Position numbers and translations under genes: made by a program. Source: Owenia fusiformis (lineage: Eukaryota). From it: a DNA stretch of 64,000 nucleotides. Position 1 is the first letter of the stretch; the number at the start of each line of letters is the position of its first letter. Positions 3,001 to 24,200 of this stretch are shown here, piece after piece. The notes under the pieces are model-generated. The model had not been told where the DNA came from, ran no database searches, and saw only the letters and a program-made list of their open reading frames with translations. Location of the stretch: NCBI GenBank assembly GCA_903813345.2, contig CAIIXF020000001.1, positions 17,732,001 through 17,796,000 of the forward strand, read 5' to 3'.

Positions 3001-3368
3001 CTATCTACAATCCAGCAATAGCATTTAGCAATATAATATACCTGCTATCATTGATGTTTTGGGTAATAGACTTCTTCAAGGTATTAAGAATACTGAAACT
3101 ATGATTTTTTACCAGGACTGTACATGTAATTCATGTGTCATATCAAACAATGACTTGTTAAACCCATCAACATGATAGGCTGCATTTATAAACTTCGTCA
3201 CCAAATCACAATCGAACGAACGGAGATTTCACATGTATTTTAGTATTTTAGAATTGATTTGCTACAAATGTTTAAATAAAGGTTCCGCTTTTTGGACCAC
3301 CCTGTATATGTCACAATTACAGCGGATAAAAACATCAAGTCACGAGGCATTTCTTATTGCCATCAGAT

Positions 3369-6300
3369 ATGACAGACAGAGCGGATCAAAGCTTTGATTT
3401 TCGAGCTCTTTATTCACGGGTATTCTATAACACAACCAGTCACTATAGCAGTGATATTGGACAATACAGTAATAAAAGTCATGGACATCAAATTTGGGAT
3501 TACGAAGTGCTGCTTCGGGCAAACTATAACGACAGCCTGATTAGCAATGGCACAAACGAAACTGGAATCTGGGATGCTGAGATGCCAAACGTCGATGAGT
3601 TTCGGCCAATGTTCACTGCAATTTATATTATAGTATTTCTGTGCTCACTTTTTGGTAAGTAGGGAGGCTAAGGATGTGACAGACACATTTTATACACGAT
3701 TTTATACACGATTACATGCTCATGGAATAATGGGCAAGTTAGGCTAAAGAACAAAATAAATCTTAATTAATCAAGCGGTGAAGGGATGTGTATGATATAC
3801 AATCAATGCAGTCACAATGTGTCAAAGCCCTGCTCAAGGTCAAAGATTTATTTACAAGGTCAATTTAGATGCAATTCTCATCTTTGATTACCAGAAAATA
3901 CTTTAATTCATATGGTAAGATGCTTACAAAATCAATGGTCTCTGATATATATCTTGAATGGTTTGCATAGATGGTAAGTATACGGTTTTATTAATAATCT
4001 ATAATTTAAAGGGCTATAATAGCTGTTATTCTTATTCTAAGTAACCCTAAAATATTGATTTCATAATGATACGTGTCGTGAATATGAACCTTTTTCTCTG
4101 TCACTAAAGCTTGGAAGAATTGTTCACGATTCAAACAAAATAATTGCCGGTCGTTTTTGAATCAATTAAAGGTGTTCAGCATTTTTTCAATTTTGGAACT
4201 TGTTCTAAATTGATTAGGTGCGTGTAGTTTTTCAATTTTGGAAATTGTTCTAAATTGATTAAATGTGCGTGTAGTTGTTCAATTTTGAAACATGTCTAAA
4301 TTGATTAAATGTGCGTGTAGTCAATTTTGGAACTTGTACTGCTAACTAGGTGAGGATTTTCCAAACTTCGGTATTCCAGAAAATAAGATTTATGCCAAAG
4401 ACTATTAAGAGAGAATCAGAGATAGCGAGCAGGCTAAACAAAAAATTGTTTCAATTTTAGAATATTTTTGGCTCATGTCATTCCTTGTCATGTCTATTTT
4501 CTAAAAATCACAAAAGTGCATACTTTATTCAAGGAAAACAAACGATTTTTACAATAATGTATTATTTTTCTATAAGAATGGTTACCATTCTTATTATTCG
4601 GGAGAATTTAAACATTTTTCACCCATTTTTGCACTTTGAATCATTAATAACTTCACCAATTTATAACATATTGTGAATCTTTTGGGAGATATTGTATTTG
4701 ATATTGTAAGGAATAGATTGGTTGGTCAATTATACATATTACATGTAATTTTGTCACCCCCTATAGATCTGATTCTGCCTTTAATCAATGGTGATCCACT
4801 CAATTGCGCTGGTTCATTTCGTAATCACCTCGAAGGAACGATTTTTTGTCTTTAATATATGATTGTTATTCTTATGAATGGGGCAATTCAATTTAGGAAA
4901 TCAACTTTTTCTTAATATTGAGAGTACGCCATGCGCATGCGTATATGACGCTACTCCATTGCCAAAATGCCAATGTTGTCTTCCCTTCTGCTAATGATTT
5001 TATATGTCAACAAAAAAATTGGTTTAGATATTGCTAGATAACGAGAAAAAAACATCTCGTGTGTTAATGACGTAACTTTTTATCAGGGTAATAATTATAG
5101 TCATTTTATCATTCTGATTTTTGCATGATTTTGCGTCAAGACTGTTAAAATCGTTGGTTGAAACAAGCAGGGAAATAAAGCGGAGAAAAGTTGCACAAAG
5201 AAAGTAGTTTTCAGTGAAACCAACGCTTGTGTAAGACAAAAGCATACTTCTTTTAGACCTGAATTCGAGTTTACACATTTTATGCATAAAATAAAATGAA
5301 ATAAATATTGTTTTGAAATAAGGAAACTTTTAGTTGAGAATGTATTACAACATTGGCATTCAATCGAAAGCCCATGATTACAATAAGTATTGTATTCGAT
5401 GATCTAAAATCTAAACTGGCGGGGAATTCAAATATTTAAAGACTCGCAACTTTTCATTTGTCTTTTCAACAATTTCCTTAAGTAAGAAGAGTCACGGGGG
5501 TCCAACTAGGCACGTTGAAAGCCCGTTAATTTGAATTTTGGACCTACCAGATGTTTGAAAACCAATAGGATTGTGAGTTAAATACTGCACCGTATTTCTT
5601 CAAACTTGTTCCATACAAAGCAAACAAAAATGCCTTTCTATTGGTACATTTATTCTGTAATACAGAGTCCCTCCTTTAGCACTGTTTGAGTCCACAGCTA
5701 TGATAAGTTGCCTCTCACATACACCTCATATATCTAAATGAAAATTCATAATTATTATTTCTAGGGAACCTTATTGTGCTCATAGTAATCGCTCGGAACT
5801 ACAAAGCTAGGGCTGTAGCGAATCTATTCCTGGCCAACTTGGCTGTTGCCGACTTGTTCCAAAGCATTGGGTGCATCATCCCTACCCTTGTCGTGTATGT
5901 CGTAGCAAACTATTGGGTGTTTGGAGAGGTAAGAATGACAGAGATTTCGCCTCGTTTAGTCCAATGTACACCAATGTGGTGTTTTTCCATAGAGTGATTC
6001 AACGTTGCCTCGCTCAATTTGGCCTTTGTGAAATCCCTTGAGGAATCAATTGCAAATGGGCATTCCGACTCCAAAGTCTGACCGAGGCCTTCGTAATGTT
6101 ATGACGATTCAGGTATCGACATTGTACAATTTTTTGGGCCAAAACTATTTTTGAAAATTGCACTAGCAGTCACAAGTGCCACTAGCTCTAAGGTTAGCAG
6201 GTGATAATTATTCAATTTACAAAAACATAGTAAGCGTATATATGAGTACAAGTAATGGAAGTAAGGTATGAGCTTCAGACAGAACTTGAGCAAAATCTCT

Positions 6301-8008
6301 CTATGATTAAACCACGTCTACAATTTACAAGTCCGTGAAACAATCAATAAAGGTGGTGACATTTTATTTTGGAGAGACACGATACAGAACAATGATAACA
6401 AAAACACTGTCTATGGTCTCTGCAAAATGTTTACCCTCCCAGTCCAATGTTCTCGAAGCATCATTGAGCTCTTGTCTGTCTGTGTTTCAGGTGTTGTGTC
6501 GATGTCTGTCTTTCCTGCAGTTGTTTGGTCATACAAGCTCAATCAGCCTACTCACCGGCATATCAATCGAACGATACTACGTCATCGTTTACCCGATCAG
6601 AAGTCGATTTTTCAACAAACGCCGTATAAAGGTCATACTCGTTATCATCTGGATCTTATCTTGTGCCTACAGTTTACCCTGGATCTTTTTCTCCGAGTTT
6701 ACCCTCAGTCCGGATGGGAAGTCATATTGCATCTACGCACAGGGAACATACAAGCTGATCAAAATATACGATACGGTTACATTTGTAATATTTTACTGTT
6801 TACCCCTTATGGTACTTGCATTCATGTATCCATGCATGGCTAGAAAACTCTACAGCCATCCTACTCTACAAGCAGATTCGAATGGCGAAGATACTAGATC
6901 AAGTATTCTTAATACAGTTCTCCGATGCTGTGGCCGACGAATGTCTTCATCCGAGAAAAAATGGACAATTACGATGCCATGTAGACGCTCTACGGCCACA
7001 TCAACGTCCTTCAGCTCATTAGAAGCCAGGTTATCTGTAGAACAAATGGATTCGGCAATGACGATACCACGCTCGGTGACTGCATCAACAATGTGCAACA
7101 CAGCGGATTCAAGACTCCCAGAGGCCTTAGATGAATCTGGTTTACTGCCTACAGATTCCAAGTCCCAGCAACCCCAAACAGACGACAGGAGTACAATTCC
7201 CATGAAGAACAGAGTCGAAAGGAATCCGAGAAAGAATGAGAAGTCCACTTTGAGGACTGATGTTGAACAAGATACGAGTTTTTCCACTCCTAAGCTTGAC
7301 ATAGTTCACAGCAAAAGTCGGGATACAGACAGATGCACTGCGTTGGCAAGACGAGGATCATTGACACACCATAGCGATGCGATCCGACCTACTGAGCTAA
7401 ATTTTGATCGTACCTCGCAAAATACCTGTCACCACCACGAACTACCAGATACTATAGCTGTGCACCCGCCAGTCGCAACCAAAAAGTCCGTTTCAAGCCA
7501 GGATTCGAACTCCTCGTTATTAAGTAGAAAATCGATGCGAAAAGGGATGCGTGTCGGAAAGGGAATGGACACCCCTTTGTTGACTCCGCAATCTGCCCAG
7601 GCAACGCATATTCAACCGGATAATCATGCTGGGCGCAAAGGAGACTCCACGATACACGGTCGTATTTTGAAGATGAAAAGAAAGGTGATTCGTCTCCTCA
7701 TGGCGATTGTAGGTACATTTGCTATTTGTGGTTTGCCTCACTATATTCGTTTAATGTGGCAATATTGGGGGAGCCTACCCATTAACAAAAACATTATTAT
7801 TTTCTTACACTTTAGTAGGATCATACTATACCTGAATACAGCCTTGGACCCGTTGCTATATGCGTTCATGTCGGACAATTTTCGACGTCAAATGCGACAG
7901 GCGTTCATGTTCCTGAGTCGACACAATACTGGGTCGAGCGTAGGCAGTAATCGTGGAAATAACCTTGTTTTTAGACGGTGCGATTCGAGGGCCGTAGTCA
8001 GGGTGTAA
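3369..8008 (+). CDS. Class A (rhodopsin-like) neuropeptide GPCR, trissin receptor-like; 3 coding exons, about 655 aa
   Basis: Exons 3369-3654, 5765-5928 and 6491-8008 join in frame through GT-AG sites (phase 1, then phase 0). The N-terminus has several NxS/T sites. Motifs: TM1 FG|N, TM2 NLFLANLAVADL, WVFGE|VLC, TM3 ISIERY, TM5 FYCLPL, TM6 FAICGLPHYIRLMWQYWG, TM7 LDPLLYAFMSDNFR. MWQYW after TM6 matches my recollection of arthropod trissin receptors. The GPCR call is firm; the subfamily call is an inference. Confidence 0.9.
4186..4340. repeat. Tandem repeat, about 45-bp unit, about 3.5 copies
   Basis: Repeated TTCAATTTTGGAA...CTAAATTGATTA...GTGCGTGTAGT in GPCR intron 1. Confidence 0.8.
4410..4790. 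repeat. Dispersed repeat fragment (other copies at about 9750-10040, and inverted at about 43975-44070)
   Basis: Shared blocks TTCAATTTTAGAATATT...CATTCCTTGTCATGTCTATTTTCTAA and CCCCTATAGATCTGATTCTGCCTTTAAT. Confidence 0.7.
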
Positions 8009-8320
8009 AAATACAACGGCCAGCTGATTTCTTAACAAGAAAACAATCAAAATCACCAGACAAAGAGCGGAGAAATCATTTTAAACGATGGCATAAAGAA
8101 TTAATTTCCTACAAAATTTCTCTGGTATACCATGTTTCGTTTGCCACCGAATCATCAATCACTTAGGACTTTATATTATATCTGTTCGTATTTATCTGAC
8201 GTAAAAATGATATGAAGAATTCTCCAACGTTTTTCCATACTCACATAAGAAGCCATCTAAATAATATCCAGTAGACATGCCATGTACCCATTAAATGTAC
8301 ATGCGATCTTATTTTGCACA

Positions 8321-9000
8321 AAGGAGTGATATCGATATGGAGAACTGAATTCAACAATGTTTTTCTCTTAAACCAATTATTGAAAACATTCTGTAAAAAC
8401 ACGGTCCTTTATGTAATGTTGACTGATTGACAACAATTTAACATTTTTGTTTTTTAGTGCAATTGTTTTTTGTTCCTTTTTACCATTTCTTGAGAATGAA
8501 ATAAAATATCTTTCCGAAGCCTGTTTGAACAAAATAGCATATACAACATTTTCTTAGACTTCCTAATATTATAGTTGTACAAAGGAAATTTTGGTTGATT
8601 TAACAAAAAGTATTCAAAAAATTAAAAACAAAAACCCCCGAAATAGATAAAAACTAAGATAAACCTTTAATTTCATTAACAAGATACTTTTTTTAAATCA
8701 ACCAAACTTTCCTTTGTACAATTACAATATTGAGAGACCTAAACATGTTGTGTCGTTTTGTTCCAGTGAGGTTCGGATAGATGTTTCATTTCATTCCGAA
8801 CATATGATACCAAGAACGAAAGAAGTGTCTGGTGTGTTTTCTTTAACAATATAGAGAAAAGTATATCTCTTTCAAATTATATGTTTACCATTCAAAAGAT
8901 GACCATTAAATTGACAATGTGTAAAATTTTCAGAATATTTTGATGGCTGGTTTAAGAGACACGTGTGTTCAAAAAGTTCGCCATATCGATACCCATCCTT
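8321..9000. mobile_element. Degenerate foldback (whole-element palindromic) MITE, probably in the GPCR 3' UTR
   Basis: TATCGATATGG near 8330 pairs with CCATATCGATA at 8981. Inner arms TTGTACAAAGGAAATTTTGGTTGATTTAA (8576) pair with TTAAATCAACCAAACTTTCCTTTGTACAA (8693-8721). Confidence 0.65.
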
Positions 9001-11255
9001 CAGTTGAAAAGTCGGTTATTTTCCTAGTCTAGCTACAAACCCTTGTGACACAAGTTGTTAGAGTAGATAGTCCAGGGTCTTGAGGCAAGATTATTATTTT
9101 CCAATCTCTGTGTCTTCTACTTCCATACAAGGAGATCAAATAACAATGATATGCTTGAGGGAACCGTGAAGGATTAATTCCAAGGTGTGCCTTGGATTAC
9201 ATTGGTGTATTCAAGTTTCAACACGCTACAATTATGTGGATGAGAGTACGTCAAATGTGATCAACCAATGTAATTATAATTATATTCAATCAATATATTT
9301 ACCTTTTAAATATAATGAAGTAACGGCTTGTTTGTGCAAATAAGATGTTGTTTGTGTAAACAGGATGTGCTATGAATGCAGCCTGTAGTTAGAATATATT
9401 GGAATTATAATAAAGATGTAGAAAGTAGAGAAACACATTATAATGCTCCGTTAATCATGAATAGTAGTATGTAGTTGAATTTTGGCACACCCTGTATCCA
9501 TACATAATTGTGAGAACAGTTTTAGATGTAAATATCGTAAGCTTTTTATATTTACATAATAAAGTAATATAAGTTACAATCACAGTGTGCAAGAACGGTT
9601 CATTTGTTTTATTGGACGGAGTAAAACATTCATAGCCGGATGTATTACCGACTTCATCCGCTATATTCTATTTATCAAATGCTTAATGACAGAATCAGAT
9701 CTAGCAAGTATATCCATCATTATCTTCTTCATGATCTTGACGCAAAAAATTCAATTTTAGAATATTCTAGGGTCATATCATTCCTTGTCATGTCTATTTT
9801 CTAAGAATGCCCAAAGTGTAAACTTTATTTGGGGAAAACTAAGATTTTTACAATAATGCGTGTTTATAAATATGGTTCATTTATATAATTTGGGAGAATT
9901 TAAACAAACAAATTCCCCCCATTTTTGTACTTTGAATCCTAAATAATAAATGACTCCCAACAATTGAAAACATATCACAGACCTTTCATTGATGGATCAA
10001 TTAAATATATCGCTTGTAATTGTGTCACCCCCCCCCCCTATAGATCTGATTCTGCCTTTAATATAAGATGGATGAACAAAACTGGTTGGTAAAATCAATA
10101 TTTCAAAAATTGCATATATGTAGGTATCCTGCATCCATCCTGTATTTGTATTCTTATAACTGTATTTCTACAGAAAAATGGAAGTTGGACGGATTTGTAC
10201 ACCATTACCAGTTTATATTCCATGTAAACCCATCTATAGAAACCATTCCGATGAACACCCTTTATATACAGAGTGGGCCAAAAACATCCAAATTTCCATT
10301 TTGCTTTAAGATGCCAATCTAGATGTATTACTTGAGGCCTAACTCAGATCACAATCATCGTTTCATCAAATATTAACCTGTACCTTTAATTTCATTCAAA
10401 ACACTGCCCTGGTGTCTTTTAAAAATTCTTATATCATGAGCTTTCAAGAAAAGGGTATGCAACTTCCAAGATTCCGTATTATCAGCATTGCCTCGAGTTT
10501 TCAAAATTGCAAAATTGGAGGAAAATGCTTTAGGATTATGTGCATGCATGTTGATAATGTGATACAAAATGGAATTCATCAAAATTATGCAAAATGCTAT
10601 TGAATGTTTGTATTCTCACACAAATTTTTTTAAACTGAATTTTAACTTATTTTCTGCTTTAGTTATATTCTAAATCAATTTTTTCTTCAAGGCAGTACGA
10701 ATATTTGATACATTTATCCATAGACGAATAGGAAAATCCTCCAAAGCCTTAAAATATGGGAGTTTAATATTTTACTGACCCCCAAAATATTGGTACCATC
10801 GGAAAGCTCTGATATCATGCATTGCAGTATCCATGAAAAATATGATAAATTATAAAGGGAAGCATGGCAATGCTCATTTTAAAGTTTTCATGTTTGTAAC
10901 ACAGAGTAGCATACCCTTCTATTGAGGCATATTATATGGCTATAGATATATGACGCGCTATTGCCGCCAGAACCACGCAAACGATCGCGAATGTTTTTTT
11001 TTAATTCCAGAGATTGATTTTAAACTGTGTGATATAGAATATGGAAATGCCCCGGACATGTTATCTGTCGAGCGTATGTATTACTTGTCGCCTAACCAAT
11101 CATTCAATAAGGAAGCTGCCCATTAATACGCCGATTAAGGAAAAGTTCTCTCGTGGCAAACCAAAAATTGAAAGCCATCGTAACATCTGAATAAGAGATT
11201 CCAACATATCATTGCATGGTTCTCCATCGATTACGCTACAAAATGTCGGAACGTC

Positions 11256-11487
11256 AGTAGTTACAGAAACGAGAGTTCTGACGCACCTTTAACATTGAGT
11301 CCTATGGGGAGGGACACGATTTTTCATAGTACCCTCCCTAACATGGGCTCCAATGGGGAGGGACATCTGTGAGCCTCCCTGAGCTCGGGAGGCACATACG
11401 GGGACCCCACCCCTCCCCCCTCGGCGTGGTGGCGTGTACATATTTCGGGAATCTCGGGCCCTAAGGTAACGGACGCCCTACCCCACG
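11256..11487 (+). repeat. Left TIR (232 bp) of the mini-Maverick
   Basis: Reverse complement of 15396-15628 apart from CTAAG-GTAAC versus CTAAGAGTAAC. GC-rich, with ATGGGGAGGGACA twice and a hairpin GCCTCCC-TGAGCTC-GGGAGGC. Confidence 0.97.
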
Positions 11488-11931
11488 TTTGTACGTTTAC
11501 TGTAAGGATACTATTCGAATTCCCGCCAAAAACAATAAATCGATAAACCAGTACGCGTCGTAAATGTCACTGCCTTATTTATAAAGTGCGGCCCAGGCGG
11601 ATTATCGATTACCTATCAACCAGGCGTTTCGTACTCGCGAGGTCTTATCGTTTTAAGGTCATCCAGCTGTCAGTTTACGAAACAAATTACTCTGGACTGT
11701 ACTTTAAAGTGCGGACCTAGCTCGATTATCGATTATCAATCAACCATCCATCAACTTTAATTAGTGTAACGTCCTTCATCGATTTAAGATCATACCGTTT
11801 AATGGATGTTACATTTGGTTGGGATAAATATTTATTTGCTAATTCGTCAACACACTTCTTTTCAAAATACATCAACTATAATACATATTTACATTATAAC
11901 ATTCAAAATTCTTCATTGAATCATACACAAA

Positions 11932-13029
11932 TTACAAAGGTATTAAATCGGAATCTTTAACCCACGAATCAAACTTTTTTGGCCAATATTGCCAACGCAC
12001 TAAATGTTCCCGTTGCCCTCGTCTAGTTCGTGTTTTCAAGATTTTTTCTACTTTCCAAATATCATCTTCATTCGCTTGTACTCTTTGAAGCTCCGATTGG
12101 TAAAAAGTACCCTTAATGTCTTCATTTTGAAAATCATTTAAACGATATAATGGGAGGCCCTGCCTAATAAAACGTTTCGTTACTTTAAAAATTTCCCCTG
12201 TCCAATGTTGGTCGTATTCTCTACTAAAAACATGTCTCGACTGGGTAATTCTTACCAGAGCTCCAATGGGGAATTTAAAGATGTGATTAGATTTGGTTTT
12301 AACGATAGTTGATTTAGGATAATACATCCGCCACCAAATAACCAATTCATCGTCTTTAGATACATTTTTAGGAGCCATTTTTATACCCCTATGCCAAGTG
12401 GCGTTATAACTCTTCACAAAGTTTTGTAAATTGTCTATAAATCTATGGTTCTGTTTGTACGTGATATACCTCATTATTTTAGTCTTTAACGTCTTTATCA
12501 ATCTTTCTGCATAGTTGGCCTTGGGGGTATTACCCGTAACAAAATGGCGGACTCCCCATCTATTCAACAATGTTTGTACAACCTTAGCGCAGAATTCTTG
12601 ACCTTTGTCCGTCCTAGTGACATCTGGTTGTCGACCTTCTTTCAATATATCATCGAAAGCCTCCGCCACTGCCTTTCCAGTTTTGGAGTGTAGCGGTCTA
12701 ACCCAGGCAAAGCGAGACATAATGTCAATCGCAACCAGGATATACTTTATCCCGTCATTCTGCGATGATATATTAGAGACATCCATAAGATCTGCATCCC
12801 ATTGTTCGTCAATATGCGAGACATATACTTTGTTACGAGCGAATCGTTTCTTATAAGGTCTCTGTAGGCCATAAGCTTCTTGATTGTCCAGCCATTTCTT
12901 TATCTGATAACGGGACAGCTGGTATTTCCCATCATTTAGTACAGCTCTATAGAGTTTGTCTGGTCCAGCAAAGGCTCCAGAATTTCGACTGTCAAAGTAT
13001 AATTTCTTTAAATAGTCTTGATATGCCAT
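11932..13029 (-). CDS. Maverick/Polinton retroviral-like (rve, DDE) integrase with C-terminal chromodomain, 365 aa
   Basis: Uninterrupted ORF with catalytic motifs QWDADLMD, RTDKGQEF and KANYAERLIKTLK, plus YNATWHRGIKMAP and WTGEIFKV. Chromodomain: WKVEKILKTR...HLVRWQYWPKKFDSWV. AATAAA lies on the minus strand at 11831-11836. Confidence 0.95.
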   Translation of the reverse strand: MAYQDYLKKLYFDSRNSGAFAGPDKLYRAVLNDGKYQLSRYQIKKWLDNQEAYGLQRPYKKRFARNKVYVSHIDEQWDADLMDVSNISSQNDGIKYILVAIDIMSRFAWVRPLHSKTGKAVAEAFDDILKEGRQPDVTRTDKGQEFCAKVVQTLLNRWGVRHFVTGNTPKANYAERLIKTLKTKIMRYITYKQNHRFIDNLQNFVKSYNATWHRGIKMAPKNVSKDDELVIWWRMYYPKSTIVKTKSNHIFKFPIGALVRITQSRHVFSREYDQHWTGEIFKVTKRFIRQGLPLYRLNDFQNEDIKGTFYQSELQRVQANEDDIWKVEKILKTRTRRGQREHLVRWQYWPKKFDSWVKDSDLIPL

Positions 13030-13088
13030 CTTACACTGTCGGAATCTGACTCCTTAATGACGATCTCTCTTTAAATTGCTAATATTTA

Positions 13089-14679
13089 TCACTCAGTGCT
13101 TGATTCAACAGCCTCGTTTTCGGATTCACTCTGTTCTTCCTCGGAGCTACTTTCCTGGTCTGTATCCTCTATAAAGACCTCATCAAACTTGTGTTTGTTT
13201 TTTAAAAGTGTCTTCCTAATGGCTAAGTTCACAGAGACACCCCTCCTCATCATATTATTTATTGAATCAATTATATTTCTGTGTAACGCATTGTCTTTTA
13301 CATCAACCGTTAGCTTGACGAATTGTTTATATCCTTTCATAAATTCTTCCTTATTCTTTGACAATAGTTTATTATCTGCCTTTTCTACAGCCTCTGTCTT
13401 ATCCATCCCTCTATCCATATACTCATCCACTTTACGTCGGTGGTCTTCCTCATTCTGTCTTATAGACCACTTCTTTAAGAATGCAAATGTTTCATTTGCT
13501 TTCAAATCACCATCATCGTCATCAACGTCATTGTCTTTGTCTTGAGGAATCTTCTCCTCAATATTTTGGGTAGATTGGGTCCTCATCCTCTTGGGTAGTG
13601 GTCCCTGATCTTGACACCACTTTTTTATATGCCTCTGTAAGTCGTGAATGCTATCAAATACTAAACCACAGTCATCACAGGATACCATGCTGTCTTCTCG
13701 AAATTCACGTTCCATGTAAGGGTAGTTCTTAACATCACTACTATTTATAAATGTTGTCGTCGGATAGTCAACTTCTGAAATACCCTGTCTTTCAAGTAAG
13801 TGTTTTGAATCATTCATTGGTTCCTTGAAGTTGCGGGAATCGTGATGACTTTCAAATTCAACTTCACTTTTAGTAAAGGCATTTGGTTTCAATCTGCTGT
13901 GCTCCGAAGTTTCTTGCTTCAGATCAAGAAGCAGGTAACCATAGGGTCGACTAGTTGCGTTGGTATATGCTCTGACCAACTTGTTTCCATTTCCGGGGTA
14001 CATCTGCCTCGATAAGAATGCCACCTGTTGGCGATCTCTCGGGTTATTAAACAGTATCATATAGTGAGAGTTTAAGCTCATCGATCTATTCATTTTTCCT
14101 TGATGATACATATTCTGGAGTAGGCATATCACAGACAGATTTCGATGGTGACTGCCTTTGCTATAGAGATCACATATCCGTTGATCATTTGTTGCCTCAT
14201 TCATAAGATCATCGAGAAGTATCAAAGTAGGAACTGAAGTGTCAAGGTATCTTGAATCATCAATATCCTCTGGTATTCCCTTCACAAATTCCAAATGTGG
14301 GTATTTTCTTAGCTCTTCGTAGGCAGGCTGCCATTGACCATAACACCAGATGATTCTTCTAGGAATTGGGGATATATACCGTTCAACATTTTTGATCAAG
14401 TGCTTCATAAGCCAGGTCTTCCCCGACGATGTTGGTCCGGCTGAAAATACAACAAAAAAATTTTTTTTTAATAAATTGACATGCTCTCTTTCTATATTTA
14501 GAAACCTATCAGACTTTTAATTTCAACATGTCCATGCCTATACCTGCTATCATAGTAAACGGATGTTTCAGCATAACATCAGACTGATGCATTTTTTCTC
14601 CATGAAACTTATTCATATGCCTTGATAGGTTATCACCTCTCGTAAAATTCACACTACACTCAGAACAATTGAAAGACAT
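13089..14679 (-). CDS. A32-like/FtsK-HerA DNA-packaging ATPase fused to C2H2-type zinc fingers; 2 exons, about 495 aa
   Basis: Exon 1 (14679-14544) reads MSFNCSECSVNFTRGDNLSRHMNKFHGEKMHQSDVMLKHPFTMIA. After intron 14543-14441 (GTATAG...TTTTCAG), exon 2 (14440-13089) restores KHPFTMIAAGPTSSGKT (Walker A). Also present: Walker B LILLDD, the GSHHRNLSV..LLQN motif, PYGYLLLDL, a second Zn finger CDDC..F..HDLQRHIKKWC, and an acidic tail. The ORF track shows only the 439-aa downstream part. Confidence 0.9.
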
Positions 14680-14849
14680 GTTGTCTGTTCAAGATCTATC
14701 AGTAAAATGACTCAAAACATGGACAACTTAAAATATATAAGAATATTCTAATGTGCAGTATTGTGATTGGTTCAAAATGTGTCAATTAAGATCAATTATA
14801 AACATAAACAGGCATTTATGACATTATAAACTATTGAATATTAAAGTAA

Positions 14850-15175
14850 AGGGAGGGGAGGAGGTTTGGAAGATGGAGAAGAGACAGGAGGAGGTTGGGT
14901 GGAAGTAGGAGGAGGTATGAGGTAAGGAGGAGGTAGGGAGGAGGTGGGAGGAGGTAAGGAAGAGGTTTGAGGAGGTAAGGAGGAGGTAATGATGAGGTAG
15001 GGAGGAGGTGGGAGGAGGTAAGGAGGAAGCGGGAGGAGGTAGAGAGGAGGTGGGAGAAGGTAAGGAAGAGGTGGGAAGAGGTAAGGAGGATATAGGGAGG
15101 AGGTAATGATGAGGTAGGGAGGAGGCGGGGGGAGGTAAGGAGGAGGTAAGGAGAAAGTGGGAGGAGGTAGGGAAA
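14850..15175 (+). repeat. Polypurine GGAGGAGGT(A/G)-type tandem repeat inside the mini-Maverick
   Basis: About 325 bp of roughly 10-11-nt units such as GGAGGAGGTAA and GGAGGAGGTGG, almost free of C. Confidence 0.9.
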
Positions 15176-15390
15176 AGATGGCTAACTTCCGTTTTAAAAC
15201 CTACCCAGGCCGACTAAAAGATGCCTCACTTCCGCTATGATGTCACCCTCTTGCCCAGACAGATGCAAAATGGCTGACTTCCTGCTAGAAAGCTTCAAAA
15301 TGGCCGACTTCCGGTTAAATGGCTGACTTCCGGGCTGACTTCCGGTCAAAATGGCTGACTTCCTGTCAAAATGGCTAACTTCCGGAACGT
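15175..15390. promoter_or_regulatory. Subterminal array of AAAATGGC(T/C)(G/A)ACTTCC units (YY1-like and ETS-like motifs)
   Basis: About 7-8 copies directly inside the right TIR, upstream of the ATPase gene. CCAAT (about 14766-14770, minus strand) and TATATA (about 14734-14739) lie nearer the ATG. Function is inferred only. Confidence 0.45.
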
Positions 15391-15395
15391 ATAGT

Positions 15396-15628
15396 CGTGG
15401 GGTAGGGCGTCCGTTACTCTTAGGGCCCGAGATTCCCGAAATATGTACACGCCACCACGCCGAGGGGGGAGGGGTGGGGTCCCCGTATGTGCCTCCCGAG
15501 CTCAGGGAGGCTCACAGATGTCCCTCCCCATTGGAGCCCATGTTAGGGAGGGTACTATGAAAAATCGTGTCCCTCCCCATAGGACTCAATGTTAAAGGTG
15601 CGTCAGAACTCTCGTTTCTGTAACTACT
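15396..15628 (-). repeat. Right TIR (233 bp) of the mini-Maverick
   Basis: Reverse complement of 11256-11487; ends in ACTACT followed by the TSD AACGTC. Confidence 0.97.
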
Positions 15629-18211
15629 AACGTCGAAGGTACGATTTTGCGAACAGATAGTTCAGAAGACAACAGAATCGTCGATTTAACTCCTCACTTA
15701 AGTTACATAGACGGTATTTCGAAAAACAATTAAGATCTGCACTTTTAACCCATACCTTAAGTTAGGAATTAAATCGACGATTCTGTTGTCTTCTGAGCTA
15801 TTTTTCGCAAATATGTCCCTTTTCCAAAACATATGATACTGATATACGTTTGTGAGAAAAAATGTCGTGGGGATTCTGCCTAGAACGCCTGAATTAAGGA
15901 AAAAGAAAAATCGTACCTTCGACGTTCCGACATTTTGTTACCGAAACGAACCGTTTCGGTAACCATCGTAATCGAGCGGATCACCATTCACCAGTGCATG
16001 TGTTACTTCCATTTAATGTGATATTTTCAAATATTTAAAGCCAATATATCGTCATTATTTATTGGGTATTAATATACAGATATAAATTGTTTTTTGTAAG
16101 ACTTATTACAGTACTCTATTTGATTTATAAGGATTAAATCCCTTCTATTTTAACTGAAGTAAGCAGTTTTTATCGATGATAATAATATTAATTTTTTCTC
16201 ATTGTGGAGGAATTAATCAAATATCGTTTCAATTATTCAATAGAGATATATACTATTATAATTTATTTCATTGACATAAAATACATCTACTTTACAGATA
16301 ACTACAAACAGACAAGAGCGCATATTGACACAGTGTCTAATTTGTTTTTCCTTTTCCATAATTCAAATCAACACAATATGATTATTCTCAGTCTAATCTT
16401 AATGAACATTAAAACAACTAAAACTAGTTAAATTGTGAAAGTGAAAATGTAAAGGAAATGTTGAACTTTTCAATTTTTGTTTATGTTCTTTCAATGTTAG
16501 CGACGTGACAATCCATTCCTGTTATGTTTGTACTGCAAGGGATAATCAAGCATCTTGTACTTTCAACACTCCCAAACCATAAATGTATCATTAGAAGGCT
16601 TTTAGTGTAACCAATGCAAATAGCGGCTATCAGCGACCGGGTTGATTGCAATTTAGAAGCAATGGCTGACCTAAATAACGATTTAATCTAGCTATTAAAG
16701 CAGCAACTCACCCACTATCGAGGTTGGAATTGTAAATAGCGAAGTACATCTGGCGCATGCGCATAAACGCAAACACATTTTAAGTGTGTTCAATCATGTG
16801 CATTAAAAGCCACATGATCGCTGTTAGGGTTTGTTCGTAAATTACAACTTCAAACTTACGAGTTAGTTTATGCAAATTAATAGGTTAATCCGGTAGCCGT
16901 CAGTTGCATTCGTGAACAACTCCTAAGTTGAACACTTTTAGAGGTACCAAAGGTCTTCTACTTAGACAGGTTTTACTGTATTCGCACGGTTCTGGCGGCG
17001 ATACCGCGTCATATACGATAACAATAGCAAATTAAATCCCACATATCCAGCAAAAATAATTATATTTATATGCCAGTTGTGACAAAATTAAATAAAAATA
17101 TTCCTATGTATTTGGCACATTCTACCAGTATATAATTTGGAAATGGTCAAACATAATGTACAGTATAAACAGTGCACGCATGACACATATTCTTAGCCAT
17201 TGTACATAACTTTACAATTATAATAATTTCATACATCAGTTTTGTCGGATCTTATGTCCTCGAATGTCCAAAGTAACACACTCTATTATTGGATAGTTCA
17301 TTACTGACTGCATTTCATATTTACAATATATTTACAATATACAACATTTACAGTGACTTGCTAAATATCTACAGTTAAATTACTGAACAAACTTTATATC
17401 CCTTGGCAACTAGCGTTGATCCCATGTGAAAAGGGGTTCTAGTTTAATTCAAGGAATCAGCGTTGAATGCCTGAATGCCTTCTAAACTAGCACTAAAACC
17501 CCTAGAACTGGCTCGGCAAGGTGGTAATAATGAATTATAACTAGAAGAGCGATATAGCAACTCCACTGAGTAATAAGTCCCACCAACAAAACTGTATTCT
17601 CAGATCTTTGTTCGTTTTGACCAATTCTATGCAATAATTTTTTTAGCAGTTGTAAAATGCATGCACTCTGCACCATTCCTTTTGAATAAAGACATTTTGG
17701 AAGATACAATAAACATGTATTTCTGAATTCTAAACCTTAACTACCCTAAACAATTATCATGCAGTATACAAAGTTATTGGCAAAACGTCATCGTGAGCAT
17801 TTTGAAATAAAAGGCCACTTTGAATTGAAAGATTAATAGATGCCTGAAAAAAAGTTGACTTCTCTTATCACATACATAAGTCTGAGCATGAGATTTATAA
17901 TTCTTATGTAAAAAACCATTGAATGACGATGTGTTATTTGAATGGAATGATACACAGTGCATGCACTTTAATAACACCAAGGGCTGCATTGTTCCAGTCT
18001 TAGGCAGATGACGTAAAGTAGAGCACAACTTTGCTATATGTGATCGATGTACACTGTATGTAGAAGGTGTACCGTTTGACGAATAACCAAAATGGTCTAG
18101 CATTTGTTAGTTTAAAGAATGGTCCTAATGAATCTTGCTGTAGCTGATGTAAGTTTAATGATTCAACATGAATGATCTAGCGTGTAGCTTTAATTGTAGA
18201 GGAATTTGAAA

Positions 18212-21200
18212 CTATCTGTATGCAGTGTTACTTCCGGGTCTCATCCAACTGTCATCCTGTAGGGTTGCACCTGATGGAGGTCTGAAATACAACAAACAAT
18301 ATTATAATCACACTGCCATATTTCTCACTCTCTGATTGGACATTTCCTATAATAGCTTCCGAAATGGGTAAATAACATGCAGGAATATAATTGATATCTG
18401 AGGTGAGCGGCTGATATATATATCTCGCTGAGGTGAACGGGACATATATATATCACCCGCTAATCAACAATCCCCGGGAATTTCTTTCGGTGCTTTTTTG
18501 AATTCCCGGGATATACTTTTGGCTCTATTTGATAAATACGAATTTCATACACTGTTAAATGTTAAGAGCTGTCGAGGTTTTAAAAAACATAAATTGTTGA
18601 GGACTTTAAATTGAGATAAAATATTCATGTTCTGATTGTAATTATCGTTTGTAATTATTACACTAGGGTTCCCTTACATTCAATGCATATTCAATTCTCA
18701 TCATCTACTAAGTACATGTATAGGATAAATCCGTTATATTGAATGCTCGATTTTTGATACAGGGTATTTCCCTCGGATATACCCTGTATCAAAAACCTCC
18801 CATTAAATAACCTCTATATATTGACCAGACAAATGTCTCATATTTCTCAGATACTATTTTTTCTTATTCTTATTTTATTTAGAGGGTTGATTTATGAAAA
18901 TATGACTGTTAAACATATAACCTAACCTGTTATGAGTCTGCTTTGCCATAAAACGATCAAGTATGTCATCTGGATCTCCCACAGATATTTCATCTCCTGG
19001 AAAACATAATTAACGCCTCTGGGATCAGTCAAGAGTGTTCGGATTAGCAGGTGTTCACATTCCAATTTTTTTCAATATATAGGTCAATGAGAGGTGAAAC
19101 ATTTGGACCGAAAGAAAGTGTTCACATTGAGAGATGTTCCGATAAGTCAGTTGTTAGGATATATATATATATACAGGTTTCACAATATTGTGGTCTCTGA
19201 AACAACTACAAAAACAGCAACTTTTTGGAGTAGCAAATACTACTGACCAAAATATTTTTTCAACTCATTATTCATTTCATGAAAAAAATAAATTGGGCAC
19301 TCAAAAACGTTTATCTCCTTTAAGCAAAATCTATAACCATGACATGACATGAAACCATATTAGAAATCCCTTCTGGGGTTGAAGTCCTATGCTCAATTGG
19401 CATCAGCCTATAACATTTGAACCCAATCAATGAATCAGAATTTGAGGTACTGCCTGGACAGACAAACAAATGAACAGAAGGTTGGGAGGATGGACAAATA
19501 GTTATTCAGACATACGGAAAAGACAGCTTCTCTATATCCTTCCTAGACTTTGTTCAGTGGGATGATCATACTGCATGATAACTTTAACAGCAAATAGTAA
19601 TTTGTCGGATTCACACATGGCTAGTTTTTATGTTATTAAACTATATTCATTTAAATAATCACACAAAAGCAGTAACTGCTTCAGTGCATAATGAGAAACA
19701 TTTTTATTACAATGTTGTCAAGAATTAACAGTTTCCTGGTCAATTAATTTATTTATTCACCTAGAATCACCTCATGTTTACCACTTTTAAAACTTATTGT
19801 ACCATTTAATAAATAATAAACAACACTCACTGTATTCCCCTTTCAATTAGTAAAGAAAATCATTAAATTGATCTTATATAATTAAATAAATTTTTTGACA
19901 GAACTTGTGTTAATTAAGATTTATATTTCTCGAGATAAGCCTAGAAAAATTCATGTGGTTGTAAAAAAAATGGTGAATAATTTTCTAATGAAGCAGATAA
20001 ATTGACAGCAATCAACGAAGGATTTACATGTAAACTCAATTGATTTTGTACTTTTACAGGAAAAGTTTCACACATTGACATCATCGATTTTAAAGTGGCT
20101 AATTATAATATCAACAAGTTAACTTTGTGTGGAAAAGTTAAGCAGTTAATCCAGCAGAAGTTTTCCTGAAAAAGTGCTGGCAAGAAAAACAGATAATTCT
20201 AAGTCACTGGTCTTCAAGTTCAGAAGTCCATTTAGTAAATCAGCCCTCAAAGAGCTTGAAATCATCTGTACAAAATACACTAAACCTACCTCTTTTTAAA
20301 TGTGGAACCCTTTTAAAGAAATTACAGGAACTTAAATGGTACTTTACCTGCTAGAGTTTTTAGCTTGCGTAGCCGCTCCTCATTCTTGCGAGTAATTCTG
20401 TCGGGATCGATGCTGGTGGTAGATCCCATATTAGTCCCCAGGGAAATATTGTCCAAGTTAGTGTAGGGAGAGGGTTGTCTTGGGGTGGCCTGAAAAGTAC
20501 ATTCAGAAGCTACTTCGTTTGTCTCATACACCACAATATTTGATGCAAGAAGTTTGAGCTTATAAGAGAAAATGAGGAGAAACATACTTTTAAACAGGGT
20601 GATCCCAAAATGCAAACCATCTTACTTTACAACATATATTCAACTTATATATTATCAAAGACAGAAATTGCATTTTCATGTTATTCTGAATAACAGTATG
20701 ATTCAGACAAGGCATTTAATGTCATGTTAAACATGCAAAATGTCACTTCTGCCATTTGTTACAGATGCTGATCAAACACCAACTGCCAATACCATTCACA
20801 AAAAAGTTGGCGACAATAACAATATGTCACCACTTTTAATTTGCCTTAAATTTGTTCATGCTTAATAAATTTTAAAACATACATCTGTTTCCGACATTAG
20901 CCACTACTCAACATTGTTGACAATAAAACACTATACAACAAAGTGTGCTCTTTAACAGAAAAACTACAAACTGACAAGCCAATCAGCTGCAGCATTCCAC
21001 AAAGTATACAATCTGAGCCAATCCATCAATTGCCAAATACTGCCAACCCCACTAAAAGTCCCACTGGATCTAGCAGACCCCCAGCAGCAAGTCCCAGACT
21101 TAACGCCACAAATAGACCCCCTGCAGCTCACCAAGGTAACAGCACATCTAAACCCCCCAAGTCAACCCCAACCCACGGAAAAGGCAAACGCAAAACAGTA

Positions 21201-24200
21201 CATATAATGTACTCTAGCAATGGGAAAGGTCTAGCAGGAGTCATGATGAGTAAAGATAATGCCATTTCTGCAACCTCATCAGTATATAGTGGTGGAAGAA
21301 TAGAGACAGGCACATACAGCTTAGAGAAAGGTGATATTAAGGAGTCCACTGATTTCAAGTTCATAGGACTTGGGACAAATAATATTCCAGCTGATCATCC
21401 ACAAGATATGGTATATGAACTAAAGAACTTAATGCAAACTGCGAAAAATAAGCATCCTAGATCAAAACTAATCTTGTGTGGTATTCATCACCGTGGCGAC
21501 AGTCGTGACAGCGGAACGAGAGATATTTGGAATTCAAAGATTGATTATGTAAATCATGAGATGCGATCCTTTTGTACAAAGCAAGGACATGGATTTATAG
21601 ATATCAATGAAGTCAATGGATCAACAGTTCGAAATCCTTGCATGAAAGTCTTATACAAAGACATGTTACATTTCAATCACTTGGGACGCAGCAGACTAGT
21701 TGACGCTATGATCTCTATAATGAGACAAGAATGCCCCACCACTTATGCACAGGCTGCAGCCTATCCTTCATCTGTAAACCCTCAAAGAGCTTGGTCTCAT
21801 GCCAAGTTTTAGACTGTGAGTGTGGTGTAGCATCAGCATCTGATCAAATTAGAGATTATGTCTCTAAAACTGTATATGTTGACACTCAAAGATCTGTACA
21901 TAATGTAAAAAATGCACATTATCCTGAAACACATGTTAATATTAATGTTAAAACTAGGAATCATATAACATATGTAAATAATAACTGTGATGATTATTCA
22001 TATTCTGTGTGTGTTGATCCAGCAACACATGTTAAGGAAGGTAGCCAATATGAGATTGATTCAACACTTGATTCTAGTAAATCATCAGAATTGTGTACTG
22101 GTTTCAATTTAGAAACACATTTTAACGTAGAAACAGAAACAAATGTCAATTCAGAAACACATTCTAATATTGGAGAAGTCTTATCTGCAGAGAAAAATCT
22201 TTCAGTACTCCTTTGGAATATTAATAAATTATCTGACAAATTGCATGATGGGAAAGATGTACAAACTTTTTTACAAGATTATCAAATTATTTTATTGAGT
22301 GAGACATGGCTTTCTCCAATAGAAGATATTGTTTTTGAAGGTTATGCCTGTTACAACCTTGCTCGTAATTCAAATATTAGTGCAAATAATGGTCATAACT
22401 CAGGTGGGCTTGCAGTGTTGATCAGTGATGAATATAGTACAGGTGGTATTGATATACTTCCACAATCTCATGACTTTTTCGTCTGGATAAAATTAAGTTC
22501 CACTTATTTTAATATTGAAGAAGATTTATTTATATGTTTTATCTATTTGCCATTTAAAGGCTCTGTGTATGAATCTGCGACAGGGCCAAATAATATTGAC
22601 ATACTAGAAATATCAATAGCTCATTATCAAACCTTGGGGAAGACAATAATTTGTGGTGATATGAATGCCCGAACAGCTAATCTTACTGATAGTAACATAG
22701 ATATACTTGGTAGTAATGGTGATTTACCAGTAGATATGTTTAGCATTAATGAGTCAATGCTTCCACAAGAAAATGGAAACAAAATTGATGATCTTTTCAG
22801 AACACGTAACTCTATGGATAAAAATGTAAGGGCAATTTCGCAAACACACGGGAGAGAATTTTTATCATTATGTAAATCAGCAAACATGAAAATACTCAAT
22901 GGGCGTCTCTATAGTGACAAAGAAGTTGGAAAGTACACTTGTTATCGGAACTTCACTCATAATTGTGAATCAAACTCTGACCTTGGTAAATCTGTTATTG
23001 ACTATGTAGTAATTCAACCTATTATAATTCCATTGATATCAGATTTTAAAGTACATGATAGAAGGGTAGAATCTGATCATGCCCCTTTGCATTTTTCACT
23101 TTCACTGACAAAATCAGGAAAATCACGTTTTAAAGCTAGTGTATCAGATCAAAGAAAGAATGCATTTAATATTAATTCTTTTAAGTCGTACAAATGGGAA
23201 GCGGCACAGACAAATGAATTCATCCAAAAACTTAGTGATCAAACTAGTAATGAATTGTTGACCACTTTCTATACTGAATTGGGCTGTTCTAATATTGGGA
23301 CAGATGAACTATTAAGTAAACTTTTAAATGTAATACACCATGCTTGTGAGGGAACATTTAAACTTAAAGAATTAAAATCAAACAAAAGCAGTAAATTTCC
23401 TATAAATGCTTGGTTCACTGATGAATGTAAAATGTTGAAAAGAAAAGTTCATGATGCTATCAAAAATAAACTTGATGAAACTCATATTAACCAAATTATC
23501 AAAGAATACAATCACTAAACAGCGGGAAAAAAGAAGGTTTAAAGCAGGAATGTTAGAGAGTTTGGTAGTTAATAGGTCTAAATCTTCAACCGATTTTTGG
23601 AAACTTATTAATGCAATGCCAGGAAATATAATTAGAGATATATCAGTACCCCCTGAGGATTTATTAACCTATTTTCAAAATTTGGCAAAGCCTCCAAACA
23701 TGGATTATTTTGATAATGATGCACTTCAAAAGATGAATGAATTTATTCAAGATAGCATTCAAAATAACTCTGATGACATTAATTTAAATCTTTGTTATAA
23801 TATTATAGATGGCAGAATCAGTCAAATTGAGGTGTACAATGCTTTTAAAAAAGTAAATTCTCATAAATCAGCTGGCATTGATGGTATCCCATCGAACATA
23901 ATTAAGAGTTGTGAAGTACTTATTCCAGATTTTACAGCACTTTTTAATGTTATTTTCGACAGCGGTGAATACCCACGTGACTGGAGCATTGGTATGCTAA
24001 GTGCTCTCTTTAAACAAGGAAGTCGTTTTAAAGCAGATAACTACAGGGGTATAAATGTATTAGCTTGTATTGGTAATATATTTGATTCTGTAATTCAAAA
24101 TAGACTTGTTTTTAATGCACAGGTACAAAATTCTCAAGATCCTCTGCAAGGTGCATATAAAGAAAATAGCCGAACAATTGATAACATATTTATATTACAG

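Follow-up and report, generated by a model that had tools for sequence, protein, structure and literature searches.

A short intron, probably removed by host splicing, in the packaging-type ATPase gene of a small Polinton/Maverick derivative from Owenia fusiformis

The genome of the animal Owenia fusiformis (assembly GCA_903813345.2) contains, on contig CAIIXF020000001.1, a small mobile element of the Polinton/Maverick kind that encodes an integrase and a packaging-type ATPase, and it is the interruption of this ATPase gene that is described here. The stretch of DNA that was analysed, hereafter the window, is 64,000 nt long (positions 17,732,001 to 17,796,000 of the forward strand), and coordinates are counted from its first letter. 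The ATPase gene is split by a segment of 103 nt which, judging from reading frames and homologues, is most probably (a probability of about 0.78) a functional, lineage-specific spliceosomal intron of the U2 type that makes production of the ATPase dependent on host splicing. Splicing would join a first exon, comprising a C2H2 zinc finger, a linker and the strand HPFTMIA, to a second exon that runs from the Walker A motif GPTSSGKT onward. Because an intact ATPase is obtained only by removing the 103 nt, the gene would depend on the host spliceosome; we infer that this machinery removes the segment and that the element needs the ATPase. Such a dependence had been proposed in a first, sequence-only reading of the window, and it finds support in homology and reading frames rather than in RNA. 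The intron would have been gained in this lineage, since most relatives are uninterrupted at the site, and, in what would be a recurrent pattern, short phase-1 introns appear to have been acquired independently by other lineages of the ATPase family, at most seven codons further on.

By direct reading of the window sequence, the ATPase gene starts with an ATG at 14679-14677 on the minus strand. Exon 1 is 136 nt long (45 codons plus 1 nt), carries a zinc finger recognized by Pfam (zf-C2H2, 6.2e-5) and ends ...ATG ATA GCA G, whilst exon 2 opens with CC GGA CCA ACA TCG TCG GGG AAG ACC at 14440, stays open for 450 codons and is closed by TGA TAA at 13091-13086 (minus strand). The segment between them begins GTATAG and ends TTTTCAG (in context G/GTATAG...TTTTCAG/CC, where the slashes mark the junctions). 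Its excision joins G/CC into an Ala codon in phase 1 and gives HPFTMIA-A-GPTSSGKT, which bears out the earlier claim that removal of the 103 nt restores a beta strand together with Walker A. The ORF (open reading frame) followed in that claim, at 13089-14516, indeed comes without the preceding beta strand, the zinc finger or a start codon, but the P-loop itself is present in it; no Met lies upstream of the P-loop within exon 2. Left unspliced, the frame terminates after 59 residues, so the proposal that intron retention leaves a short finger peptide agrees with the reading frame, and unspliced RNA would yield this peptide only. The ends at 14543-14441 are GT and AG, as in a U2-type intron, 14 of the 20 bases preceding the final CAG are pyrimidines, and the G+C content is 25% in the intron vs 36-41% in the exons. 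CAG stands at the end of exon 1 and again at the end of the intron; the segment has no internal inverted ends and no target duplication exceeding this CAG, and no second copy of it was found in the 64-kb window beyond low-complexity A/T matches. An origin by tandem duplication of exon sequence was considered and dropped, as the intron ends are by eye unlike the flanking exons. Alternative splicing from the intron donor to an acceptor before the integrase ATG was likewise rejected, there being no pyrimidine-tract acceptor upstream of 13029 and no joints listed.

The exact placement of the junction has been defined with the help of uninterrupted homologues. A library of 1.84 billion proteins holds 7164 homologues of the ATPase at E <= 1e-3; the family motif HPFTMxVxGPTxxGKT is nearly invariant, and the best homologues share the full layout of the split gene (N-terminal C2H2 finger, this motif, core, CxxC...H...C finger, helices and acidic tail). 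P0001, a homologue without the interruption, matches exon 1 over its residues 25-69 with no gaps (BLASTP E 2e-10), and alignment A2 matches the same exon at an hhalign probability of 98%; exon 2 aligns with residues 71-467 of P0001, leaving between the two exons a single residue, that of the split codon. The site was also compared in 97 related loci, namely the best 80 of 308 confirmed metagenome loci and 17 loci from genome bins. HPFT-x4-GPT is contiguous in 81 of the 97 (72/80 metagenome loci and 9/17 bin loci), so the 103 nt would be an addition that falls precisely at the border of two conserved codons. The eight exceptions among the 80 comprise two loci that are contiguous but frameshifted (L044, L053), two that are truncated (L045, L049) and four that are interrupted; the remaining eight bin loci are diverged, degraded or truncated. 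IMG/VR viral contigs gave 20 pattern matches, none of them a relative. Thirteen GT..AG pairs (40-160 nt apart) in the 201-nt neighbourhood keep an open frame, and just one of these, 14543/14441, restores the four-residue spacing from HPFT to GPT that is typical of the family. The match of the putative intron to the conserved junction is more than chance.

The product of the interrupted gene had been taken from its sequence for a viral-type packaging ATPase, and structural modelling of a homologue indicates that this assignment is right. The window protein matches Pox_A32 of Pfam at the threshold (6.6e-5; a marginal 22.9 bits for a cut-off of 22.8), whilst the relative L007 reaches 28.9 bits, some relatives also match Adeno_IVa2, and PF04665 is precomputed on many homologues. 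G6 and K7 of the Walker A motif GPTSSGKT at the start of exon 2 are invariant in alignment A1, as are D76 and D77, which follow a hydrophobic strand as Walker B; the C2H2 finger found by Pfam in the exon-2 protein occupies residues 279-299. The fold was assessed on P0001 and not on the window protein: the AlphaFold2 model of this homologue (mean predicted local distance difference test score, pLDDT, 80.9) has a strand at residues 66-70 followed by the P-loop and then a helix. When it was compared with the PDB using Foldseek, the top ten matches were all chains of STIV2 B204, with STIV B204 at ranks 13 and 16 (E 1.5e-6 and target TM 0.58-0.64 for the B204 matches). On this model the intron would lie at the boundary of beta strand 1 and the P-loop. 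A search of PDB sequences with the ATPase returned zinc-finger matches only, with no ATPase among them, and PHROGs gave no match for the ATPase. Bivalves are the source of the named homologues, and in the Atlas the clusters are assigned to Mollusca and Preplasmiviricota.

Introns at neighbouring positions were found in four of the 97 related loci (L076, L014, L031 and L008), all in phase 1 and one to seven codons downstream of the window site. The ATPase intron of L076 is a GT-AG intron of 87 nt that splits the codon after GPT; those of L014 (124 nt) and L031 (163 nt), also GT-AG, share one position in the Gly codon of GKT, and their sequences are unrelated despite the common position. All three are AT-richer than their flanks and contain stops. 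In L008 a pyrimidine tract and AG are found one codon downstream of the window site, exon 1 being off the contig. The introns of the four relatives vary in length and sequence. On a quick maximum-likelihood tree of 77 rows (21 loci without a stop-free high-scoring segment pair, HSP, spanning residues 12-180 were excluded) the five intron-bearing rows are scattered, and the well-supported branches require at least four changes. The integrase gene of L076 has a phase-1 GT-AG intron of its own (about 117 nt, 2107-2221, in the Gly codon of DKG/QEF), and thus introns in these elements are not limited to the P-loop; both L076 introns open with GTACATTTTA. The interrupted codon is Gly, divided as G/G, for four of the six introns, the other two being that of the window, in an Ala codon, and that of the L076 ATPase; an exonic G precedes five of the six, the sixth being that of L008. 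This pattern would fit an ordinary protosplice-site bias. Downstream of the P-loop, 79 of the 97 loci have one ORF over all HSPs, and the other 18 show stops or frameshifts with no extra DNA between consecutive query residues, as judged from HSP coordinates; an intron-like gap later in the ATPase gene was seen in none of the 97 by this screen, which is blind to the poorly conserved N-terminal linker. Many family proteins in databases begin just after Walker A and are complete at the C-terminus (P0006, P0007, P0020, P0176, P0190, P0204 and others), and the first residues of P0007 are those encoded directly after the L014 intron. These entries suggest that ORF callers cut short intron-bearing ATPase genes and that the clade of L014 and L031 is abundant.

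The best placed of the rival explanations, which we nevertheless consider unlikely, is that the 103 nt is an unspliced insertion specific to this copy or subfamily, with a dead ATPase gene and GT...AG ends that are coincidental. Much of the evidence that bears on it comes from reads and contigs of runs of the same organism, which were compared with 3.4 kb of the window (11500-14900): one contig run and three raw RNA-seq runs, of which 6-12% each was sampled, with a joint listing threshold of 3 reads. From the raw runs, 43, 28 and 72 reads fell on the 3.4 kb. Several observations weigh against a functional intron, and four of them would be expected of an insertion: no splice joints are listed in these three sparse runs; the exact intron position was found in none of the 97 related loci, neighbouring positions being occupied in four; the 5' splice site GTATAG is weak, differing from the usual consensus GTRAGT; and X24 reads cross the segment, those whose first mate is not on the plus strand reaching a depth of 1.77 in the bin 14464-14577, similar to the 2.21 and 2.33 of the adjacent bins. 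This bin is mostly intron, and its coverage must come from RNA that is unspliced or antisense, or from DNA that was carried over. To the same side belong the lack of a clear branch-point match by eye among several TNA candidates in the A/T-rich intron, and the behaviour of reads with the first mate on the plus strand (sense RNA in the usual stranded library), whose depth is zero in the same bin and does not exceed 0.28 in that of exon 1. Moreover, one X15 contig matches exon 2 up to 14440 and diverges between 14440 and 14441. Its loose end consists of 29 letters, has no terminal AG and does not encode the HPFT strand, and the contig may represent a rearranged or truncated copy; its interpretation as an intronless copy was rejected, for by eye the loose end is only faintly like the reverse-complemented end of exon 1, needs a 1-nt gap and contains an in-frame stop. 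An insertion would also sit well with the make-up of the element, in which polymerase and capsid genes have been lost and a packaging ATPase may be dispensable.

Other properties of the segment and of the gene around it speak against an unspliced insertion. The ends of the segment restore the gap-free junction exactly, its 3' end has a strong pyrimidine tract, and the long target duplication, inverted ends or further copy in the window that might have marked an insertion are absent, as described above. An X15 contig spans the intron and carries the same segment with an extra A in the intron A-run, which is the sole length change listed on the 3.4 kb; the assembled copy is thus not alone in having the intron. 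The 22 substitutions listed on the 3.4 kb (variant copies or alleles) include 12 in exon 2, of which nine are synonymous vs 19% expected of all possible single changes (binomial 4.6e-5), and ten in the integrase, of which four are synonymous (not significant). Exon 2 is under purifying selection, and the intron tolerates a frame-breaking indel. This constraint could predate a very recent 103-nt insertion, a further point on the side of the insertion. By contrast, clear GT-AG introns lie within a few codons of this site in independent relatives, which again argues for a functional intron in the window. Reads as sparse as these neither show nor exclude splicing, and transcription of the element is low, possibly from both strands. 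Across 11500-14900 the X24 reads are present in both orientations at similar low depth, which could reflect antisense transcription or DNA carry-over, and those of X22 and X23 lie mostly in one orientation.

A quite improbable refinement of the intron interpretation, the idea for which came from the sequence-only reading, is that retention of a genuine intron is under tissue control, the 59-residue C2H2 peptide acting to repress the element in the manner known for the third intron of the P element. The unspliced product is indeed a finger-only peptide, five elements have the intron at or inside the P-loop codons, so that no active ATPase can come from unspliced RNA, and the 97 relatives lack intron-like gaps further downstream. 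These positions may instead reflect a G/G protosplice bias in Gly and Ala codons or a tendency to gain introns towards the 5' end; the integrase intron of L076 shows that introns are not limited to the P-loop, and introns in the N-terminal linker would have escaped the screen. Nothing was found that bears on tissue specificity or on an activity of the peptide, the RNA reads being too few, and the tissue-specific switch has no support. Least probable of all is an origin of the intron from an introner-like or other short mobile insertion with splice signals of its own, for although CAG recurs at the exon and intron ends, both L076 introns have the same opening and introners have been described in dinoflagellate Maverick-Polinton-like proviruses (bioRxiv 10.1101/2025.03.18.643946, in the part of the text that was accessible), the window holds no second copy apart from low-complexity matches and the introns of the four relatives are unlike in sequence and length.

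The element that carries the intron-bearing gene is 4,373 bp long (11256-15628) and is bounded by terminal inverted repeats (TIRs) of about 242 nt, in which the first 210 nt are perfect and are followed by a 1-nt indel and some 32 nt at 91%; its features are collected in Table 1. With this perfect 210-nt stretch, an intact 6-bp target-site duplication (TSD) and both ORFs open, it looks recently active. The integrase ORF begins 58 nt past the ATPase stop, matches Pfam rve (1.3e-11) and Chromo (2.3e-6) as well as transposase families of PHROGs, and aligns over residues 2-373 with the integrases found downstream of the ATPase in relatives; an AATAAA follows at 11836 on the minus strand. The only ORFs of at least 150 amino acids in the element are those of the ATPase and the integrase and one antisense frame, at 13075-13545. 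No PolB was detected by Pfam on its ATPase and integrase frames, and for a capsid protein or maturation protease there is neither an ORF nor room in 4.4 kb, short or split remnants not having been searched with capsid profiles. The sequence-only reading had spoken of a Maverick, which has to be narrowed: from its gene content the element is a short Polinton/Maverick derivative of 4.4 kb, without polymerase or capsid, that encodes the ATPase and integrase only, and not a full Maverick.

Table 1. Coordinates of the ATPase gene and of the other features of the element in the window
Feature	Position	Strand	Basis or remark
Left target-site duplication AACGTC	11250-11255	.	Identical hexamer on both flanks
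Left TIR, begins AGTAG	11256-11497	+	Complementary to right end
Integrase (rve core and chromodomain), uninterrupted 365-codon ORF	11935-13029, stop 11932-11934	-	Pfam
ATPase exon 2: Walker A GPTSSGKT, ATPase core, CxxC...H...C finger, helical region, acidic tail	13086-14440	-	ORF, Pfam
Probable GT-AG intron, 103 nt, phase 1	14543-14441	-	Splits Ala codon G/CC between beta strand 1 and P-loop
ATPase exon 1: C2H2 zinc finger, short linker, strand HPFTMIA	14679-14544	-	zf-C2H2 (Pfam), alignment to P0001
Tandem repeat, CT-rich on minus (gene) strand, periods 21/32/117	14903-15173	.	Tandem Repeats Finder
Seven copies of GGAAGTNRGSCAT	15178-15383	-	Between right TIR and tandem repeat
Right TIR, plus-strand end ...CTACT	15386-15628	-	Complementary to left end
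Right target-site duplication AACGTC	15629-15634	.	Identical hexamer on both flanks

The noncoding parts of the element are also structured. All seven matches of GGAAGTNRGSCAT in the window fall within its array (0.03 expected), and the array may act as a promoter or enhancer of the element; the two halves of the unit resemble what we take to be ETS-type (GGAAGT) and YY1-type (GCCAT) sites. The tandem repeat just 5' of the ATPase gene, 270 bp long and imperfect, sits where L007 has its polymerase module. The spacer that separates the left TIR from the integrase stop has, in 11570-11750, two alike stretches of about 40 nt (...AAGTGCGG.CC.AG....ATTATCGATTA.C.ATCAACCA...), possibly subterminal binding sites. 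Outside the element, 3.2 kb from its left end, a single ORF at 6311-8008 (+) encodes a seven-transmembrane (7TM) receptor of the rhodopsin family (Pfam 7tm_1, 5.1e-30), presumably a host gene. On the other side, a retrotransposon resembling a long interspersed nuclear element (LINE) occupies 20901-25733 (+), with three overlapping ORFs in which Pfam finds a GDSL-type esterase, an endonuclease/exonuclease/phosphatase domain and a reverse transcriptase.

The gene order of the relatives places this ATPase family among the Polintons. An ATPase followed on the same strand by an integrase is found in L002, L005, L007, L015, L029, L055 and L076, and in more distant relatives a protein-primed PolB lies beside the ATPase, in the TIR-bounded or multi-gene loci L007, L026, L028, L057, L068, L083 and L084; more distant relatives of the short form occur in PolB-ATPase-x-integrase arrays. 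Since PolB stands beside the ATPase and integrase of relatives, the family is assigned to Polinton. The fullest of these loci, L007, is TIR-bounded and 10.5 kb long (1-10582), and it encodes the ATPase, the integrase, a zinc-finger ORF and a protein-primed PolB. No ORF of L007 is recognizable as a capsid protein, and it may be a capsid-less Polinton that retains the ATPase; its PolB is spread over several frames, by introns or decay. A second kind of short derivative keeping the ATPase is L014, a contig of 4.2 kb (1-4242) with inverted repeats of 251 nt at 97% and the intron-bearing ATPase gene described above. Its second ORF encodes CARD and RING domains (Pfam 2.4e-13 and 3.4e-9), and it has no integrase. 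The 17 bin loci (L081-L097) are contigs in bacterial or archaeal bins, several of them from symbionts of bivalves or tube worms, that encode this eukaryotic Polinton ATPase; they are probably contamination of the bins with host DNA.

The ATPase can be compared with viral proteins and with the ATPases of other mobile elements. It resembles STIV B204, poxvirus A32 and adenovirus IVa2 in the Pox_A32 and Adeno_IVa2 matches of the family and in the layout of beta strand, Walker A and helix; unlike the ATPases of double-jelly-roll viruses, it has zinc fingers and a long tail, helical and acidic, fused to it and belongs to an element without a capsid gene. Pairs of a transposase and an ATPase are known in bacteria from Mu (A/B), Tn7 (TnsB/TnsC) and IS21 (IstA/IstB), in which the ATPases are of the AAA+ class. 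As in these systems, the element is a two-gene mobile element with a DDE enzyme of the rve fold and a P-loop ATPase, which is a resemblance only, whereas the ATPase itself is A32/FtsK-like and not AAA+. With regard to splicing, the P element has an intron-bearing transposase gene and is controlled by regulated intron retention; the window element shares with it a short GT-AG intron in a gene of its own, and regulated retention is the feature of the P element that has no support here.

With Polinton/Maverick elements the window element has in common a 6-bp TSD (5-8 bp and typically 6 bp in Polintons/Mavericks, as stated in the available part of PMC10748475), long TIRs of the form 5'-AG...CT-3', an rve integrase with a chromodomain and an A32-like ATPase. 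It differs in being only 4.4 kb, with no PolB, protease or capsid ORF found, and in the N-terminal C2H2 finger and C-terminal extension of about 250 residues of its ATPase. It also differs from the Mavericks of vertebrates and nematodes in that a core gene carries an intron: in the accessible parts of the two accounts, introns are said to be absent from intact vertebrate Mavericks, in line with Kapitonov and Jurka (2006) (PMC8097293), and from the core genes of nematode Mavericks, where they mark cargo derived from the host (bioRxiv 10.1101/2022.07.12.499685). Nearer parallels exist. Dinoflagellate Maverick-Polinton-like proviruses contain introners (Mob DNA 2025, PMC12166617; bioRxiv 10.1101/2025.03.18.643946) and, as far as the accessible text describes them, are likewise integrated Polinton-like elements that keep their transposition genes and have spliceosomal-type introns; those introns belong to multi-copy introner families in protists, whereas the window has a single short intron with no repeat family detected and its named relatives are molluscs. 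The integrase-type transposase genes of Ginger1 have one to four introns (PMC2836005, in the part available), and Ginger1 shares with the window element short GT-AG introns in a gene of the transposon, the need for host splicing and an rve-type integrase, but the window intron lies in the accessory ATPase and not in the integrase. A literature search to which Repbase and some earlier Polinton papers were out of reach gave no account of introns in an animal Polinton ATPase or of a mini-Polinton consisting of ATPase and integrase; a Polinton derivative with a spliceosomal intron in its core ATPase gene, and with parallel gains in relatives, may nonetheless have been described before.

That a packaging-type ATPase is kept in tiny capsid-less elements raises the question of a role in transposition. 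A speculative and improbable extension of the findings would be that the zinc-finger ATPase of this invertebrate Polinton clade is a transposition factor acting with the integrase and gated by a short phase-1 intron that came to lie at the P-loop again and again through selection. If this were true, the role in transposition would explain why the ATPase is kept in 4-kb TIR elements without polymerase or capsid, such as those of the window and L014, and only spliced, exported mRNA would give active ATPase, unspliced RNA giving a DNA-binding finger peptide.

Introns in the genes of transposons are ordinary in themselves; it is a core Polinton gene in need of host splicing that would contrast with the intronless accounts from vertebrates and nematodes. 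In practical terms, gene finders that assume intronless Polinton ORFs would shorten such ATPases. For the biology of the family, independent phase-1 gains within eight codons around Walker A would constitute a compact system in which recent intron gain, protosplice sites and phase bias can be studied, and the same system may inform on possible selection for expression that depends on splicing.

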